A DNA stretch of 28,978 nt from a virus: the IMG/VR virus record IMGVR_UViG_3300020370_000023, positions 1 to 28,978 of that record. One strand, 5' to 3'. The translations under genes were made by a program, and so were the position numbers. Below, piece by piece: positions 2,601 through 25,131 of the stretch; position 1 is the first letter of the stretch; the number at the start of each line of letters is the position of its first letter. The notes beneath the pieces are model-generated. The model was not told the DNA's origin, did no database searches, and saw nothing but the letters and a program-made list of their open reading frames with translations.

Positions 2601-4622
2601 ATGAAAGATAACATCATTAATATTAATTTAGAAACAAGTACATCGCCGACTGTCGCTGAAGTAAGGGGTAAAGATTGGATCGAATACGGAACTGAAGATT
2701 GGAGAAACTTATATCCGCAGTTTATTATAGACTTATACTATTCAAGCTCAATAACTGCTGCAATCGTAAATGCAACTGCTGAAATGGTAGCAGGTGAGAA
2801 TTTAATCATAGAAGATGAAAAAGATAGAAATGAAGAGGCTAGAGTAAAGCTTGAAAACTTTATGAATAGAGCTAATGGTAATGAAAGCTTACATGAAGTA
2901 ATAAAGAAGTTAGCTTTTGATTTTAAACTTCAGGGTGCTTTTGCTCTTAACATAGTTTGGTCTAAAGATCGCACACAAATTGCAGAAATATACCATGTAG
3001 ATGTTTCTAAGGTTCGTTGTGCAAGACCTGATGAATTTGGCAAGACTAAAGGTTATTACATTTCTGCAGACTGGTCAAACACTAGACAAAACAAACCATA
3101 TTATGTTTCTTGCTTTAATGTTAATGATAGAACATCAGCTAATCAAATAATGTATTCAGGATTATATAGTCCTAATATGAACTCTTATTATACACCTGAC
3201 TGGGTGTCTTGCACAAATTGGAGTCTTATAGATTCTAGAATTAGCGAGTACCACTTAAACAACATAAGCTCAGGATTTTCAGGTTCTTTTATGATTAACT
3301 TCTCAAATGGCATACCAACACAGGAAGAGAGATTTCAGATAGAACAAAGTATAACGGAAAAATTCACATCACAAAATAATGCAGGGAAGTTTGTATTGAC
3401 TTTTTCAGATGACAAGACTAGAACACCTGAAGTTAATGCGATAAGTCCTGCTGATTTAGATAAGCAATATTTAGCACTTCAAGAATTACTAACTCAAAAC
3501 ATTTTATCAGGACACAGGGTAACTTCACCTATGCTAATGGGGATTAAGAACGACACAGGACTTGGCTCTAATGTAGATGAACTTAACTCAGCAGCAAACT
3601 TTTATCTTAATACAGTAGTTAAACCATTTCAAGATCAGATAGTAAAACAACTTAGAAAAATCTTTCAAGTTAATGATATGGATATGCCTGTAAACTTTGT
3701 ACAGCTTAAACCAATTACTTTAGAGTTTACAAGTGAAGATTTAAAAGGCATTTTAACTGAAGATGAATTGAGAGAAGAAATGGGATTGCCACCTTTAGAT
3801 GTAGAAATCAGAGAAGATTTTAGCAAAGTAGGAAATATAGATGGGAAGCCAGTATTTGACACAATAAAAGAAGCTGAGGCGCACGCAAAGACTTTAGGGT
3901 GCGAGGGGTACCATCCACACGAATACGAGGGCAGAACTGTTTACATGGCGTGTAAAGACCATTCTTCAGCAACAGAACTTGCAAAGTTTATTGAAGAATT
4001 TGGTGAAGATATACCTGAAGAGTGGGAATTAGTAGATGAAGAAAAAGTTGTAGATGAACACGCTGACTTTAATTTTGAAGAAGTTTTAAATGATGTAGCT
4101 AATGAAAAGATAGAATTAACTTCAACAGGTAGGGCTTTGCCTGGTAGAAAGTCAGATCAAGATGGTATATCTAAAAAAACTTATGACTATTTTAGAGTAA
4201 GATATGTATATGCTCAAGATAATTTTTTAGTAAATAAAACAGGACAAGAAAGACCATTTTGCAAACAAATGATGGGAGCTAAAAAACTTTACAGAAAAGA
4301 AGATATTGTAGCTATGTCAGGTAAAGTTGTAAACGACTATTACTATTCTAAAAACCAAAAAAGAAATATAGGTTGGGGACCTAAAGGTGCTTTAAAATAT
4401 GATATATTCAAATTTAAGGGGGGGGGTAACTGTGAACATTTTTGGCTCCGCCAGATTTGGAAAACAGAATTAGGAAAATCAAGAACAACTAAGATAGAAG
4501 ATGCTGATTTAATTGGATATACTAAAGCGGTTTCAGAAGGATTTAGACCTGAAAAGAATAGCCCATTAGTAGCAAAGCCACCAAAAAGAATGAAAAATAA
4601 AGGATTTTTAACACCAAGATAA
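2601..4622 (+). CDS. Portal protein fused to a C-terminal MuF/SPP1-gp7-like minor head domain
   Basis: The N-terminal ~400 aa have a portal-like layout, ending GHRVTSPMLMGI...VKPFQDQIVKQL. A Cys/His motif follows (LGCEGYHPHEYEGRTVYMACKDH). The C-terminus (RPFCKQMM...GWGPKG...FKGGGNCEHFW) resembles the conserved Cys/His end of head-morphogenesis (MuF-type) proteins. Confidence 0.75.
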   Translation: MKDNIININLETSTSPTVAEVRGKDWIEYGTEDWRNLYPQFIIDLYYSSSITAAIVNATAEMVAGENLIIEDEKDRNEEARVKLENFMNRANGNESLHEVIKKLAFDFKLQGAFALNIVWSKDRTQIAEIYHVDVSKVRCARPDEFGKTKGYYISADWSNTRQNKPYYVSCFNVNDRTSANQIMYSGLYSPNMNSYYTPDWVSCTNWSLIDSRISEYHLNNISSGFSGSFMINFSNGIPTQEERFQIEQSITEKFTSQNNAGKFVLTFSDDKTRTPEVNAISPADLDKQYLALQELLTQNILSGHRVTSPMLMGIKNDTGLGSNVDELNSAANFYLNTVVKPFQDQIVKQLRKIFQVNDMDMPVNFVQLKPITLEFTSEDLKGILTEDELREEMGLPPLDVEIREDFSKVGNIDGKPVFDTIKEAEAHAKTLGCEGYHPHEYEGRTVYMACKDHSSATELAKFIEEFGEDIPEEWELVDEEKVVDEHADFNFEEVLNDVANEKIELTSTGRALPGRKSDQDGISKKTYDYFRVRYVYAQDNFLVNKTGQERPFCKQMMGAKKLYRKEDIVAMSGKVVNDYYYSKNQKRNIGWGPKGALKYDIFKFKGGGNCEHFWLRQIWKTELGKSRTTKIEDADLIGYTKAVSEGFRPEKNSPLVAKPPKRMKNKGFLTPR

Positions 4623-12316: not shown

Positions 12317-12495
12317 TAAGAAATACAAAAGAAATACTAGACTATTACTTTAAAAACCCTAGCAAAAACAGTAACAAAGAGATGGCAGAAAGATTTAATA
12401 TTTGTACAATTACTTTTAGTAGAATACTGTCTAAGGAATTAAAAAGAAGAAGAGAAAACAGTATGGTTAGAAGATTTATTAATAAAAATGTTTGA
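12313..12495 (+). CDS. Small basic protein, possible HTH
   Basis: 60 aa. NKEMAERFNICTITFSRIL resembles a short HTH. Its start overlaps the upstream stop (ATGA). Confidence 0.45.
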   Translation: MIRNTKEILDYYFKNPSKNSNKEMAERFNICTITFSRILSKELKRRRENSMVRRFINKNV

Positions 12496-14805: not shown

Positions 14806-15075
14806 ATGGATAAACGAATAAATAACGGTGGTGCTAGAAAAGGTGCGGGGCGTAAGTCTAAGGCAGATGAACAAAGATTAATAGAGAACTTAACACCAAT
14901 GAATGAAAAGGCGTTAAAGTCTTTAGAACAAGGTATTGATAAAAAAGAACAATGGGCTGTTAAGTTATTCTTTGAATACTTTTATGGCAAACCTCAGCAA
15001 AGGGTAGATGTTACTTCAAATGATGAAAGCATTAATATGCCACTAATAAACTTTGTAGAAACTGAATCTGAATAA
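14806..15075 (+). CDS. Terminase small subunit candidate
   Basis: 89 aa from the ATG at 14806 (the track uses the in-frame TTG at 14782). It has a basic Gly-rich N-terminus (NNGGARKGAGRKSKADE) and sits directly upstream of TerL. Confidence 0.45.
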   Translation: MDKRINNGGARKGAGRKSKADEQRLIENLTPMNEKALKSLEQGIDKKEQWAVKLFFEYFYGKPQQRVDVTSNDESINMPLINFVETESE

Positions 15076-16264
15076 GAAATATCAAGCACTATTTAATTCT
15101 GATGCTCGTTATTTTATAATAACAGGCGGAAGGGGTAGTGGTAAGTCTTTTGCAGTTACAGTATTTTTAACTTTACTTACAATGGCTGAGGGGATCAGAG
15201 TATTGTTTACTCGTTATACAATGGTGTCAGCTCATTTATCAATTATACCTGAGTTCTTAGAAAAGATAGGACTACTAGGTTTTGAAAATATTTTTAGTGT
15301 AAATAAAGCTGAGGTTGTAAACTTAGGCAATCAATCAGACATATTATTTAGAGGTATTAAGACTTCAGCAGGAAACCAAACTGCAAGTTTAAAGTCATTA
15401 CAAGGTATTAGTTGTTGGGTCTTAGATGAAGCAGAAGAGCTTATTGATGAAGATATATTTGATACCATAGACCTTAGTATTAGAGAAAAGAATATACAGA
15501 ATAGAATAATACTTATATTAAACCCAGTTACTAAAGAGCATTGGATTTATAAAAGATTTTTTGAGGACAAAGGCGTAGAAGCTGGTTTTAATGGTTTTAA
15601 AGACAATGTATGCTATATCCATAGTACATACCTAGACAACAAAGAAAACCTCTCACAGAGCTTCTTAGAGCGTATTAAGACTATAAAGCATAGGAGTTTT
15701 AAAAAGTATCAGCATAAAATACTAGGAGGATGGTTAGATAGAGCAGATGGTGTAGTGTTTAATAATTGGAGTATAGGCGAATTTAATCCTGATGGCTTAC
15801 AGACTTCTTGTGGTATGGACTTTGGATTTAGTGTTGACCCTGACAGTCTCACAGAGGTCGCAATAGATAAGCGTAAGCAAAAGATATATTTAAAAGAACA
15901 TATATATAAGAATGGTCTAAAATCACAAGAACTTGCACAGATTATATTAGACAAAGTAGGTCAGAAACTTATAATAGCTGATAGTGCAGAACCTAGACTT
16001 ATAGCAGATTTAAAGCATTTAGGAGTAAACATTAAACCAGTAAAAAAAGGAACTATTGAAAGTGGCATAACTAGAATGCAAGATTTTGAGTTAGTAATAA
16101 CTCCTGAATCAACTAATATAGCTAAAGAGCTGAATAATTATATATACAGCGATCGATCCTCGAAATTATATGTAGATTCATATAACCATGCTATTGATGG
16201 AATTCGTTATAATGTTATTTATCACTTAGACAATCCTAATGCAGGTAAGTATTTTGTGCAATAG
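15062..16264 (+). CDS. terL: Terminase large subunit
   Basis: Walker A GGRGSGKS (15125-15148), Walker B CWVLDEAEE, and nuclease-domain motifs GMDFGFSVDPD, IADSAEPR, HAIDGIRY. The frame opens at 15059 after a TAG, the first ATG is only at 15182, and no ATG/GTG/TTG is available. The start given here (CTG at 15062) is a guess. Confidence 0.85.
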   Translation: MNLNKKYQALFNSDARYFIITGGRGSGKSFAVTVFLTLLTMAEGIRVLFTRYTMVSAHLSIIPEFLEKIGLLGFENIFSVNKAEVVNLGNQSDILFRGIKTSAGNQTASLKSLQGISCWVLDEAEELIDEDIFDTIDLSIREKNIQNRIILILNPVTKEHWIYKRFFEDKGVEAGFNGFKDNVCYIHSTYLDNKENLSQSFLERIKTIKHRSFKKYQHKILGGWLDRADGVVFNNWSIGEFNPDGLQTSCGMDFGFSVDPDSLTEVAIDKRKQKIYLKEHIYKNGLKSQELAQIILDKVGQKLIIADSAEPRLIADLKHLGVNIKPVKKGTIESGITRMQDFELVITPESTNIAKELNNYIYSDRSSKLYVDSYNHAIDGIRYNVIYHLDNPNAGKYFVQ

Positions 16265-16318: not shown

Positions 16319-16374
16319 TAGTAACTAACTTGAAAACAAAAACCGTACAAATATATAAAAAAAAATAAAAGAGT

Positions 16375-16406
16375 AAACTAAATTTGAAGAATTTCTATTA
16401 TATAAT
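16375..16406 (+). promoter_or_regulatory. Late promoter-like bipartite element, copy 3
   Basis: AAACTAAATT (16375-16384), N9, then TCTATTATATAAT (16394-16406). The ATG is at 16409. Confidence 0.55.
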
Positions 16407-16408
16407 GT

Positions 16409-17008
16409 ATGAAGGTTAAAATTAAGAAGCAGGGCAAGACAAAAGAGTTTAAGTTAATTAGTAAGTGGGAAGATGTAACATTAGAGAAATGGTTAAAACT
16501 AATAGACTTTCACAAAGGTACAAAGAGTAAAGAAGCTCAAGAAACAATAGCAGCTTTATCTAATATTCCAAAAGACTTAATTAAGCAGTTGGAATTAAAA
16601 GATGTTGCACTTATAATGAGTAAGTTATCTGAGCTTCAAGCAAAACAAGATAGTTCTTTAAAAAGAATAGTTGAGGTAAATGGCAAAAGGTATGGTTTCC
16701 ATCCTAATTTAGATGAAATAACTTTAGGAGAGTATGCAGACATAGAAACCATGATTAAGAATGATATTGAAAAGAATATGCCTGAAGTAATGGCAATCTT
16801 ATATAGACCAATAGTTGAAGAAAACAATGATGTCTATACAATAGAAGCTTATGATGGTAATATAACCATAAGAGCGGAAGAAATGAAGAAGATGTCAGCA
16901 GAGCAAGTGCAATCAGCACTGGTTTTTTTTTATCATTTAGGCAAAGAATTGTCGCTGACTTTGCCATTATATTTGATGGAACGGCTGAAGGAAATGAAGA
17001 TGCAATAG
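16409..17008 (+). CDS. Tail-assembly-chaperone-like protein, short (zero-frame) form
   Basis: 199-aa acidic helical ORF (ITLGEYADIETMIKNDIEK...). It contains a slippery run near its 3' end and is followed by an apparent 162-nt gap. Confidence 0.5.
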   Translation: MKVKIKKQGKTKEFKLISKWEDVTLEKWLKLIDFHKGTKSKEAQETIAALSNIPKDLIKQLELKDVALIMSKLSELQAKQDSSLKRIVEVNGKRYGFHPNLDEITLGEYADIETMIKNDIEKNMPEVMAILYRPIVEENNDVYTIEAYDGNITIRAEEMKKMSAEQVQSALVFFYHLGKELSLTLPLYLMERLKEMKMQ

Positions 17009-17187
17009 CTTCAGAATCTTTTGCAGAAAAGTGGGGCTACTTTGGAATATTTTATAGACTGTGTAATGCTGATATTTCAAAGCTAGAACAGATAACTAAA
17101 CTTAATCTATTAGAAGCATTTACTTGGTTAAGTTATGAAACAGATTTAGAATCACAAAATAAAGTAAAACATGGCAGTAAGCAATAA
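16409..17187 (+). CDS. Tail-assembly-chaperone-like protein, long form by -1 frameshift at 16924-16930
   Basis: The -1 frame is open from 16861 to the TAA at 17185-17187. It reads ...LSFRQRIVADFAIIFDGTAEGNEDAIASESFAEKWGYFGIFYRLCNADISKLEQITKLNLLEAFTWLSYETDLESQNKVKHGSKQ. Confidence 0.5.
16924..16965 (+). promoter_or_regulatory. -1 programmed ribosomal frameshift signal (slippery heptamer, spacer, hairpin)
   Basis: T_TTT_TTT (16924-16930, inside a T9 run at 16923-16931) is in register with the zero frame. A 9-nt spacer follows, then a perfect 7-bp stem GGCAAAG (16940-16946) / CTTTGCC (16959-16965) with a 12-nt loop. Confidence 0.55.
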
Positions 17188-17719
17188 GAGTTATAACAAT
17201 GTAGTAAACACCCTTTGTAGAATGGGTGAGTATCACGAGCAAATTTCAACAGTATCAGTTGGAGACATATTTGATATTAATCTTGAAAAAATGGAGAAGA
17301 TGCCACTACTGCATATTAATCCAACATCTGTAACAACAGGAGATAGTGAATTGGTTTACAACTTTCAGATTTTTATTGCTGACTTGGTTTCTGAAAAAGA
17401 CAACTGGCAAACACATCAAGCTAAACAATTAACTAAACTATTAGACCCTAAGAACAACGAACAGCAAGTATGGAATCAGACCTTAGAAATATGTACTGAT
17501 TTTATAGGTATGTTAAGGCATAGTTCAAGACAATCACAAGAAGGAGTAAATGATATTAATGCTCCTTTATATTTTACACAAGACCAATTTACAATAGAAC
17601 CATTTCAAGAAAGATTTGACAATCTTTTGTGTGGTTGGACTTTTACAATAGGCGTTATAGTAATGAATGACTTTGATACTTGTGAGATACCAGTAACAGA
17701 TGCAGGTGCAGGGTACTAA
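17171..17719 (+). CDS. Hypothetical virion protein
   Basis: 182-aa ORF in the structural block. No family recognised. Confidence 0.55.
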   Translation: MAVSNKSYNNVVNTLCRMGEYHEQISTVSVGDIFDINLEKMEKMPLLHINPTSVTTGDSELVYNFQIFIADLVSEKDNWQTHQAKQLTKLLDPKNNEQQVWNQTLEICTDFIGMLRHSSRQSQEGVNDINAPLYFTQDQFTIEPFQERFDNLLCGWTFTIGVIVMNDFDTCEIPVTDAGAGY

Positions 17720-22882: not shown

Positions 22883-23736
22883 TGGCAACACCTTATTTAA
22901 ACGGATATACAATTAAACCTGCTTCAGTTAATGCAATAGGACTGGTAACATTTACTGATGGCACTAATGATGTTACGCCTAACCAACAACAATGCGAAGC
23001 GTATGGCTATACTTATGATAAAGCAACAGGGACTTGCAAGGCATTTACATTTAGTAATAATTTAGGTAGGAATATAAGAAACGAAAATAACAATATACAG
23101 GGTGTTGGTAATAAGACTGAAACAGGTACTAACAACACCTATATAATGGGAGAAAGCAATACTGTTAAAGGTATGTCAAGAAACAACATTATAATAGGTA
23201 CAAATAACGAAATATCTAATAGTGTAAACAACTCGTTTATCTATGGAAATAAAGCAAACTCAATAGCTGACAACTCAATAGTATTAGGTGGTAATAACAG
23301 TTCAGATATATTAGGTAAAAGACAAAACACTACTATAATTTATGGTGGGGCTACTGAAGATGGTTCAGCAACAGATGCTTATTTAAACAATGTAACTGGC
23401 AGTTATTACAAACCTGCAAGTGTTGCTAATAACAGTATTTTATATTTTCAAAGTGAAACAATAGCAGTAAGAGTAGGAGGTATGTCAGCAGGAAGCACTG
23501 GAGACTACAAAGCATGGGTTGAAAGGGGTGTAATTAAAAATGCTAGAACTACATTAAGTATAGACATGAGTAAAACAGCTATTAGTTCAAGTGGTACAAC
23601 TACTGGTTGGGATTTTGAAAGTCAAGTATCTGGTACAGATTATAAACAGTCACTAACAGGAGCTGCTAATACAGAAATAGAATGGGTTTCAACTATTAGG
23701 ATAACAGAAATAAGAACAAGTGTAGATTTAACATAA
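22882..23736 (+). CDS. Tail fibre/spike protein with YadA-head-like 14-residue repeats
   Basis: Consecutive 14-residue repeats of the form xxNxxIxGxxNxxx: NNTYIMGESNTVKG / MSRNNIIIGTNNEI / SNSVNNSFIYGNKA / NSIADNSIVLGGNN. Confidence 0.5.
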   Translation: MATPYLNGYTIKPASVNAIGLVTFTDGTNDVTPNQQQCEAYGYTYDKATGTCKAFTFSNNLGRNIRNENNNIQGVGNKTETGTNNTYIMGESNTVKGMSRNNIIIGTNNEISNSVNNSFIYGNKANSIADNSIVLGGNNSSDILGKRQNTTIIYGGATEDGSATDAYLNNVTGSYYKPASVANNSILYFQSETIAVRVGGMSAGSTGDYKAWVERGVIKNARTTLSIDMSKTAISSSGTTTGWDFESQVSGTDYKQSLTGAANTEIEWVSTIRITEIRTSVDLT

Positions 23737-23742
23737 AAAGAT

Positions 23743-25131
23743 ATGGCAACTAAAGAAGTTTTAGAAATGGAGATTAAAAGTAACACAGGAGAGGTTACTA
23801 AAGATGTTGAACAATTAGACAAAGCAACTGACAAAGCAGCAGGGGGTTTTGGTGGCATAAGCAGAGCTATTAAAGGCGTAGGAACTGCTATTAAAGCAGC
23901 AGGTATAGGTCTAGTAGTTGGTTTATTTGTTAAAATGATGGATGTTTTCAGGCAAAATCAAAAAGTTTTAGATTTTTTTAATATAGCTATGGAGTCTTTA
24001 AGTTTAGCTTTTAATGATTTATTTAAATTTATTGATAATAATATAGGCGTTATTACAAGTCATTTAAAAGCATTATTTACTGACCCATTAGGAGAATTAT
24101 ATAAATTAGGTCAGGGGCTACAAACATTTTTTATAGATAATCTTGGTGGCGTTATTGATTTTTTAGGCTCTCTTGGTAAATTAATAGCAACAAATCCTAT
24201 AACAAACCCAAAATTATTTGCTAAAAATTTAGCAGAAGTAAGTATATCAGCACAAAAGGCAAAAAAAGATTTAACTACTGTTTTTGATGAAATTACAAAC
24301 TCAGTAACTAATTATACTAAAAGTATTGTAGATAATGCTAAACAAACAGTTACACTTAGAAAAGAAAGTGAACTAGCAGCAGTTAAGGTTCAGGGGTTAA
24401 TAGAAGAATATGACAGGCAAGCTGAAAAACTTAGACAAGTTAGAGATGATGAAAGTAAAACTTTTGAAGAAAGAATAGAAGCAAATAATAAGTTAGGTGA
24501 AGTTCTAAAAGAGCAAGAAAGAGAGATGCTTAAATTAGTTGACATTCAAATTGCTTCAGCACAAGCAGATTTAGACAAAAATGATAGTCTTGAAAATCAA
24601 ATAAGATTACAACAAGCATTAAATGAGAAAAAAGCAGTACAAGCTCAAATAACTGGTTTTGAATCAGAACAATTAACAAATAACATAGCTTTACAAAAAG
24701 AGCAACAAGCAGTAGCACAAGAAAATGCAGATGCACAAATAGAAGCTTTTTCTAATCTTGCAGGATCATTAAGCGCATTAGCAGGAGAAAATAAAGAATT
24801 AGCAGCAGCAGGAGCAATTATAGACACTTATGCAGGAGCAAACAAAGCATTTGCACAAGGTGGTGTAGCAGGTTTTGTTACAGGAGCAGCTATTATTGCA
24901 GCAGGTTTAGCTAATCTAAAAAAAATATATGAGACACCAGTGTCAGGTAGTAGCGGTGGATCAGTTGGAGCAGGTGCTATTGCTCAACCTCCTGCACCTC
25001 AAATGATGTCAGGAGCGTTCCAATTAAGTGGGGGTCAAGCACCTGAAGCTATGAGAGCTTATGTAGTAACAGATGAAATGACTAACAGTCAAAATCAACT
25101 AGCCAATATTAGAAGAAGAGCTACAATTTAA
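23743..25131 (+). CDS. Tape-measure-like / ejection protein (coiled coil plus Gly/Ala-rich hydrophobic segments)
   Basis: 462 aa with hydrophobic segments (GVGTAIKAAGIGLVVGLFV; AGAIIDTYAGANKAFAQGGVAGFVTGAAIIAAGLA) and long Q/E/K/L coiled-coil stretches. Confidence 0.45.
   Translation: MATKEVLEMEIKSNTGEVTKDVEQLDKATDKAAGGFGGISRAIKGVGTAIKAAGIGLVVGLFVKMMDVFRQNQKVLDFFNIAMESLSLAFNDLFKFIDNNIGVITSHLKALFTDPLGELYKLGQGLQTFFIDNLGGVIDFLGSLGKLIATNPITNPKLFAKNLAEVSISAQKAKKDLTTVFDEITNSVTNYTKSIVDNAKQTVTLRKESELAAVKVQGLIEEYDRQAEKLRQVRDDESKTFEERIEANNKLGEVLKEQEREMLKLVDIQIASAQADLDKNDSLENQIRLQQALNEKKAVQAQITGFESEQLTNNIALQKEQQAVAQENADAQIEAFSNLAGSLSALAGENKELAAAGAIIDTYAGANKAFAQGGVAGFVTGAAIIAAGLANLKKIYETPVSGSSGGSVGAGAIAQPPAPQMMSGAFQLSGGQAPEAMRAYVVTDEMTNSQNQLANIRRRATI

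Follow-up and report, generated by a model that had tools for sequence, protein, structure and literature searches.

Extended isoforms made by frameshifting near the C-terminus are familiar from phage structural proteins, among them the T7 capsid proteins 10A and 10B and the major tail or capsid proteins of SPP1, A118 and PSA. A conserved -1 frameshift also operates in the tail genes of double-stranded DNA (dsDNA) phages, for which lambda gpG/gpGT is the described case (Levin 1993, Xu 2004, reviewed in PMC5009743). The gene treated here, which we call X, falls with the phage morphogenesis genes in which a -1 shift yields two isoforms. It lies directly after terL in a marine phage sequence of 28,978 nucleotides (nt) (IMG/VR virus record IMGVR_UViG_3300020370_000023, positions 1 to 28,978), and this whole stretch is referred to below as the window. 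An initial annotation of the window had proposed a programmed -1 frameshift at a T run in X, giving a longer protein, and that proposal is supported by the conservation of the arrangement and by selection on the -1 frame. Comparison with relatives points to a genuine recoding site in X, strongly conserved within a phage protein family that is abundant and has no annotation. The features discussed are as follows.

16409–17008, plus strand: zero-frame open reading frame (ORF) of X, the short isoform of 199 amino acids (aa), from the ORF list and its translation, with a match to PHROG 32199.
16923–16931, plus strand: T9 tract, the recoding site, with the in-phase heptamer T_TTT_TTT at 16924–16930.
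16930–17187, plus strand: -1-frame extension of 85 codons plus a TAA stop (17185–17187), recognized from its translation, the lack of a start codon and its wobble signal.
16930–17008, plus strand: dual-coding overlap, in which the zero-frame tail YHLGKELSLTLPLYLMERLKEMKMQ is read against LSFRQRIVADFAIIFDGTAEGNEDAI in the -1 frame, with lowered variability.
16940–16965, plus strand: inverted repeat GGCAAAG/CTTTGCC, 7 base pairs (bp) with a 12-nt loop, 9 nt past the heptamer and specific to a sub-lineage.
17171–17719, plus strand: gene A, 182 aa, the first of a block A-B-C-D, from the ORF list, with homologues after X.

The zero-frame codons at the run are GTT TTT TTT TAT, and a slip on the second TTT gives ...SALVFF followed by LSFRQRIVADF..., a product of 174 + 85 = 259 aa. 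The -1 frame is open from 16861 to 17187, fills the 162-nt gap (17009–17170) that the ORF list leaves after the short form, and overlaps the start of gene A by 17 nt; the same stop/start overlap of extension and next gene is found in three relatives (L082, L089, L091). The -1 ORF of the window contains no ATG, GTG or TTG and is therefore not a gene of its own. On the position of the run and its register in the zero frame, on the open -1 frame with its 85-aa extension, and on the coverage of the gap, our coordinates and translations agree with the initial annotation. Public databases list the exact 199-aa protein as hypothetical, with 5 contigs from seven sources carrying it.

We note that the T9 run taken alone is at chance level, as about 0.9 T runs of nine or more are expected in the window (39% A, 29% T). 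Its being in register adds no independent support either, because any T run of at least nine holds an in-phase heptamer in every register. Judged by sequence comparison, it is the conservation of the run together with the -1 ORF among relatives that puts the X signal far above chance. A scan of IMG/VR for the clade of the window gave 80 loci with 69–97% aa identity to X, and a second scan gave 80 loci and a third deep clade at ∼30% identity; the pooled set holds 141 distinct loci that require the shift, and a metagenome scan gave 53 distinct loci. All 80 window-clade loci have T9, or T10 in one subgroup, at the same codon and a disrupted frame, with the run in one of three registers (nTT TTT TTT Tnn, TTT TTT TTT Gnn or CTT TTT TTT TTC). 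The extension lies in the -1 frame wherever it was detected, that is, in all but three loci of the 80 plus the window and the cultured Nonlabens phage P12024S. The third clade has the same arrangement with T9, T10 or T12. At the homologous position the pooled loci carry T9 (73), T10 (63) or T12 (5), and none has a shorter run; between the run and the extension domain, stops or ATG in the -1 frame occur in 0 of the 141 and GTG or TTG in only 4. The metagenome loci have T9 in 51 of 53 and a heptamer form in the remaining 2. The T run and its -1 extension are kept in ∼190 independent contigs from three deep clades, P12024S included, so the -1 frame is conserved in related phages, a point on which the initial annotation had made its proposal depend.

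At the homologous codon, gp38 of P12024S reads CTT TTT TTT TAT CAT TTA GG, and its -1 frame is open from the T9 (12485–12493 of locus L001) into gp39, a homologue of the window extension, as are the extensions of the third clade. From these frames, we read gp38 as the short form and gp39 as the -1 extension, both belonging to a single frameshifted gene. In GenBank, gp38 and gp39 (L001 12043–12737; record positions 23136–23830) are hypothetical proteins.

Selection on both frames can be read from the variability of the junction. Entropy per site was taken by zero-frame codon position in 72 distinct sequences of the window's clade. Upstream of the run, positions 1/2/3 have values of 0.49/0.25/1.05, and after the zero-frame stop the values are 0.27/0.92/0.44 (0.44/0.27/0.92 in -1-frame order), which means that the wobble moves from zero-frame position 3 to -1-frame position 3 across the run. 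In the overlap (16930–17008) the values are 0.44/0.83/0.69, compared with 1.05 at a normal wobble position. A -1-frame Arg codon varies from AGG to CGN, a change that is synonymous in the -1 frame and turns LG into FA in the zero frame. These patterns indicate that the -1 frame of X is under purifying selection. The zero-frame tail follows the pattern FF-[YWLFC]-x-L-x-x-[ED]-L-L......[YF]-L in 125 short-form representatives (50% identity clusters), and the -1 frame follows FF-L-x-F-[RK]-x-R in the 6 long forms that were counted and the fused sequences of our alignment A3. Both tails thus keep protein-like patterns, which argues that two products are encoded and that both are apparently constrained.

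The most informative relatives for the mechanism form a GC-rich lineage (∼53% GC) without a homopolymer, made up of L175 and L176, of L179 and L180 (distinct IMG/VR sequences) and of L235 and L237 (metagenome), with contigs from ENA, IMG/VR and JGI. Their junction reads GTA/GCA AAT TTT ATA/ATT TAC CGT TTA GGG, so that an in-phase A_AAT_TTT falls on the homologous codon, and the -1 frame again carries the extension. An in-phase heptamer would fall at that codon by chance about once in 100. Every AT-rich locus has a homopolymer of at least nine at the junction (T9, T10 or T12), in contrast to the A3T4 of this lineage, and an in-phase X_XXY_YYZ heptamer is present in both: in the window and its T-run relatives, and as A_AAT_TTT in the GC-rich contigs. 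Because polymerase slippage on A3T4 is implausible and the heptamer is in phase, the ribosome would do the work in this branch at least. We also observed that in L175 (801–1520) and its relatives L178–L180 and L235–L237 the zero-frame ORF is 239 aa long and runs across the whole extension with a low-complexity tail. The length of the short form (167–239 aa across the family) therefore appears to be set by chance stops.

From these observations we infer a ribosomal shift and a need for both isoforms. Most ribosomes would read through X to give the 199-aa short form, ending in an amphipathic helix, and a fraction would slip back one base while decoding UUU-UUU in the U9 (heptamer U_UUU_UUU, 16924–16930) and continue in the -1 frame to 17187. 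The resulting 259-aa long form would share residues 1–174 with the short form, and a flexible linker and a small three-helix domain would replace the last 25 residues. The slippery sequence itself would be the conserved signal, with a conserved downstream RNA structure neither needed nor evident. Transcripts with one U added by polymerase slippage at the T run would encode the identical protein, and such slippage may contribute in the lineages that have a run; the ribosomal and transcriptional mechanisms are not mutually exclusive. The simplest reading is ribosomal action throughout the family, with the flanking T's fixed by dual coding, and we put the probability that the shift at X is mainly ribosomal at roughly 60%.

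Several observations weigh against this ribosomal reading, and most of them fit the alternative of programmed transcriptional slippage, in which the polymerase adds one U on T9–T12 in some transcripts of the T-run lineages to give the same 259-aa protein and, in alleles with an extra T, the short form arises by the reverse slip. RNA structure is one such point. The initial annotation had taken the inverted repeat at 16940–16965 as a stimulatory hairpin, and the repeat is indeed present at the right spacing, but a stimulatory role is not borne out: the 7-bp hairpin is outside the minimum-free-energy fold, the 60 nt downstream of the run fold no better than shuffles (z = -0.77), and RNAalifold on the window-clade junctions finds no consensus structure downstream. 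Of the junctions of 69 distinct relatives, only 8 retain the full set of 7 pairs and 58 lack the central one; across all of them pairing amounts to 71.4%, compared with 68.7% in shuffles, and much of this residual pairing stems from the conserved residues R-E/Q-R and D-F-A. The perfect stem is probably an incidental trait of the window's sub-lineage. The GC-rich lineage has no comparable downstream structure (z = -0.88), and no structure upstream of the run stands out against dinucleotide shuffles (mean z = +0.31). An upstream terminator-like hairpin was considered as a slippage stimulator and rejected; its raw energies were lower than elsewhere in the gene, and the effect was gone against dinucleotide shuffles. 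Adjacent upstream hairpins number 90, with 69.5 expected, in sequences that are not independent. The lack of a conserved RNA structure at the junction suits slippage, as does the length of the run, which is at least nine in all 141 + 51 AT-rich loci, though a heptamer needs seven. At least five configurations of register and length occur (T9 in phases 0 and 1, T10 in phases 0 and 1, and T12), and nine is the typical length from which bacterial genomes avoid A/T runs in coding regions, an avoidance put down to transcriptional slippage (PMC1088944). UUUUUUU is also underrepresented in E. coli genes, whichever the frame (PMC4066793). In 97% of the 125 short forms FF is followed by Y, W, L, F or C, a chemically mixed set, and Y, W, F and C are encoded only by T-initial codons, as L can be. 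T9 and A9 runs are used in this way in Shigella mxiE and Thermus thermophilus dnaX (PMC1088944, PMC5009743). Fused alleles with one extra T (T10/T11), which come from several independent projects and leave the short-form frame open, are easier to understand with bidirectional slippage. Finally, a singleton JGI contig (P0267; L177 965–975) reads GTT TTT TCT TAC, that is, T6-C-TT where its relatives have T10, and has its extension in the -1 frame without an in-phase heptamer; this junction might reflect an error or decay of the copy, or it might be a weaker site. Against slippage, the GC-rich lineage keeps the two-frame gene on A3T4, with a ribosomal heptamer of textbook form at the very junction; hydrophobic residues needed in both overlapping frames can account for the first and ninth T; and some AT-rich bacteria suppress slippage at such runs (PMC1088944). 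We regard programmed slippage in the T-run lineages as a serious alternative that is nonetheless unlikely to be the main mechanism.

Homopolymers are error-prone, and a miscalled T10 with a continuous 259-aa ORF, or a broken gene, would be another account of the window; single ORFs of 243–261 aa make up ∼10–15% of the clusters among the matches listed. The DNA behind these single ORFs, in contigs fetched deliberately for being fused and consisting of metagenomic DNA, not RNA, falls into three patterns: exactly one extra T (T10 where the sisters have T9 in L089–L093, T11 where they have T10 in L082 and L088), long-read assemblies with other broken genes (L085–L087), and frame switches at scattered other positions. 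The extra-T alleles (L091–L093, L089, L090, L082, L088) form a fused ORF of 245–261 aa, and in all of them the short-form frame is open. Some fused alleles are real, since one of them (P0067) recurs in at least three projects (JGI, Tara and ENA SPAdes contigs). We set aside the idea that the fused ORFs represent a frameshift-free clade or ancestor, as they reflect one extra T or long-read indels and the alternative frame is still open. For the window itself, all 80 + 80 IMG/VR loci, one cultured phage genome and 51 of the 53 metagenome loci show the disrupted frame, and this consensus across all 160 IMG/VR loci rules out the T10 miscall. The exact protein on 5 contigs from seven sources, the zero-frame tail conserved as protein, the long-read origin of several fused contigs and the same shift without a homopolymer in the GC-rich lineage point the same way, and the chance that X is a miscall or pseudogene is negligible. 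T8, T10 and T11 variants of near-identical genes in assemblies would also be expected if replication slippage toggled T9 and T10 at the DNA level and different virions encoded the short or the long form; P0137 matches P0130 at 100% identity in its N-terminal part, P0287 has the look of a T8 truncation and P0067 is fused. Such variants are a small minority, however, and consensus assemblies overwhelmingly require the frameshift; the GC-rich lineage has no variable repeat, and a lytic phage gains little if each infected cell makes one form only, which leaves phase variation very improbable. The extension could instead be an independent small protein made from an internal start or by re-initiation after the zero-frame stop, as the GenBank gp39 of P12024S implies: an ATG stands at the start of the conserved extension domain in that phage and is annotated so, and the extension-like ORF of Flavobacterium phage 6H has an internal Met. 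In P12024S, however, the -1 frame is open from the T9 through that ATG, the window's -1 ORF has no possible start of the ATG, GTG or TTG type, the interval between run and domain has ATG in none of the 141 loci and GTG or TTG in only 4, and the -1 frame is constrained from the run onward rather than just from the domain. Two separate genes are accordingly hardly credible.

X belongs to a large family. Homologues number 4,021 matches among 90%-identity clusters, and a profile search finds 5,259 clusters at 50% identity (E <= 1e-3), of which most are proteins of 215–240 aa with a profile match that stops at about position 170, the shift site. Pfam domains and informative names are absent from all the 50%-identity clusters. 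Among cultured phages, only the Nonlabens (Persicivirga) phages P12024S and P12024L carry a homologue (∼26% identity), and prophage copies were not found in 185,579 GTDB genomes with two queries. The exact X protein appears in NCBI as a hypothetical protein of a "Methanobacteriota archaeon" metagenome-assembled genome (MAG), on contigs of ∼29 kb. From the gene content and the nearest cultured relatives, the Nonlabens phages, its source is indicated to be a complete Flavobacteriia-type phage genome misbinned in an archaeal MAG. X matches PHROG 32199, of unknown function, with E = 3.9e-16 (residues 39–183 against profile positions 21–159 of 175), a match that reaches past the shift site and is shared by the distant lineage L320; the difference is that PHROG 32199 models the short form alone, in 175 positions and without annotation. 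A further likeness is to PHROG 25418 and phage 6H, whose protein has the YG...D.D.I.FGEY.D...YR motif and a C-terminal FFY, as X does, though its homology to X is weak (hmmsearch E ∼2e-3). In 6H (KC959568; L094 10047–10927, minus strand) a 191-aa coding sequence ends ...RCFFYSTR* at a T6 run and is followed by 305 nt without annotation, in which the -1 frame has an extension-like ORF but also a TAG after the run; PHROG 25418 has 293 positions, of which the 6H protein covers 1–190 only. With such weak homology and an unclear frame join (TAG after T6), 6H was set aside as an informative distant relative and kept as a lead.

For a view of the fold, we used an AlphaFold model built from the three-clade alignment A3, with a long form 81% identical to that of the window; an earlier model from a shallow alignment (A1) had a predicted local distance difference test score (pLDDT) of 50.6 and was not used. 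The A3 long form reaches pLDDT 81 and a predicted template modeling score (pTM) of 0.74, with an alpha/beta N-domain, a helix (164–184) through the shift site, a disordered linker (192–205) and a three-helix C-terminal domain (203–257). A confident single model with a helix through the shift site suggests that the long form folds as one protein. Foldseek of this model against PDB matched no solved structure (best E-value 6.3), a profile search of X against PDB sequences gave no match, and the BFVD matches are all uncharacterized phage proteins.

The initial annotation had likened X to a tail assembly chaperone (TAC), an identity that the comparisons do not support. The window protein matches none of the TAC families of Pfam, PHROGs or NCBIfam, and in 58 X-family members searched against Pfam at E up to 1 there was no TAC family and no family matched consistently. 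The expression logic of TACs, a -1 shift with two isoforms, is present in X, and the TAC position, between the major tail protein and tape measure genes, is absent. As only the expression logic is found, and neither position nor homology, we do not file X as a TAC.

The neighborhood places X among virion genes. The terL gene (15182–16264, Terminase_3 + Terminase_3C) is followed by a 144-nt spacer and X, and the order continues A-B-C-D-...-tape-measure-like or ejection-like protein-XkdF-like protease-scaffold-capsid; the opposite end of the window has the portal and a carbohydrate-binding tail protein. The tape-measure-like ORF (23743–25131; PHROG 21537, "virion structural protein") lies 6.5 kb and six genes downstream of X, in agreement with the position given in the initial annotation. 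The block X-A-B-C-D is conserved in four lineages (the window, P12024S, L082/L083 and L320), in none of which X adjoins the tape-measure-like gene. By gene order, X is a constant member of the virion-gene operon. The neighboring proteins mostly have no annotated family in Pfam, NCBIfam or PHROGs and do not settle a sipho- or podo-type tail, and phmmer against PDB gave no match for A, B, C or a 195-aa protein. As a working reading, X would serve the products of the conserved virion genes A-B-C-D as an assembly factor absent from the virion itself. A chaperone role is possible, and by analogy a G/GT-like assembly-factor role for the A-D proteins would be its most likely function, which we propose tentatively and at somewhat less than even odds.

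Other observations were made around these genes. The spacer between terL and X contains an A9 run (16357–16365) and TAAATTTG (16379–16386), which matches the Bacteroidota -7 promoter motif TAnnTTTG and stands 23 nt upstream of the start of X; across the window this motif is no more frequent than expected (47 observed, 50 expected). For terL the ATG at 15182 is the earliest canonical start, and the Walker A motif (ITGGRGSGKS) is encoded upstream in the same open frame (15041–15182). Relatives of terL start ∼40 codons earlier with TTG or GTG, and the window has no ATG, GTG or TTG there; terL probably starts at a non-canonical codon that overlaps the stop of a terS-like ORF (15073–15075). In the C-terminal part of the portal gene (2601–4622) there is a G9 run (4418–4426, AAG GGG GGG GGT) in a genome with only 18% G, which could be another slippage-prone or hypervariable tract.

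The X locus is carried by thousands of marine and freshwater phage genomes and by two cultured Nonlabens phages, whose annotation shows a short hypothetical protein and, after it, either a gap or a tiny ORF. Its products would be two isoforms, the longer of which is missed by annotation pipelines and by PHROG 32199. The family offers a natural experiment on recoding, in which the same junction is crossed via U9–U12 in AT-rich genomes or A_AAU_UUU in GC-rich ones, apparently without a conserved RNA structure, and with P12024S and its host Persicivirga sp. IMCC12024 in culture the mechanism is open to a direct test. If X proves to be a chaperone, stoichiometric control of the G/GT kind would not be tied to the tape-measure locus. 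A bolder and rather improbable proposal is that X/X' form a second broadly conserved class of recoded genes in tailed phages, unrelated to TACs: a two-isoform assembly factor for the neck/tail genes it precedes, with T9–T12 as a polymerase slippage site in most lineages, possibly bidirectional so that T10/T11 fused alleles make the short form, and with a GC-rich branch that switched to a ribosomal heptamer. Slippage in the T-run lineages and a heptamer in the GC-rich one would, if true, amount to a dnaX-like split between lineages inside one phage gene family.

Among known systems, Shigella mxiE (T9) and Thermus thermophilus dnaX (A9) resemble X in that a 9-nt A/T homopolymer within a coding region joins two frames (PMC1088944, PMC5009743), and in mxiE, as in X, the longer product requires an added base. 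They differ in that a related GC-rich lineage of X uses a heptamer without a homopolymer, and X is known here from DNA alone. Capsid and tail proteins such as T7 10A/10B and those of SPP1, A118 and PSA resemble X as virion-module proteins that come in two isoforms through recoding close to the 3' end; these are capsid or tail-tube subunits with extensions that are often immunoglobulin-like, whereas X is predicted to be alpha/beta plus helical, without a capsid or tube fold. Lambda gpG/gpGT differs from X in position, since X stands directly after terL and ahead of A-D rather than between the major tail protein and tape measure genes; in homology, since X has no TAC profile or solved-structure match; and in the slippery site, which in X is a U run or A_AAU_UUU and not a motif of the G_GGA_AAG type. 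Even so, gpG/gpGT and X have in common a protein of ∼20 kDa encoded in a morphogenesis operon, a -1 shift near the 3' end, a minor long form in which the shared N-terminus is joined to a new C-terminal domain, and an arrangement that is kept where the sequence is not, with both frames preserved.

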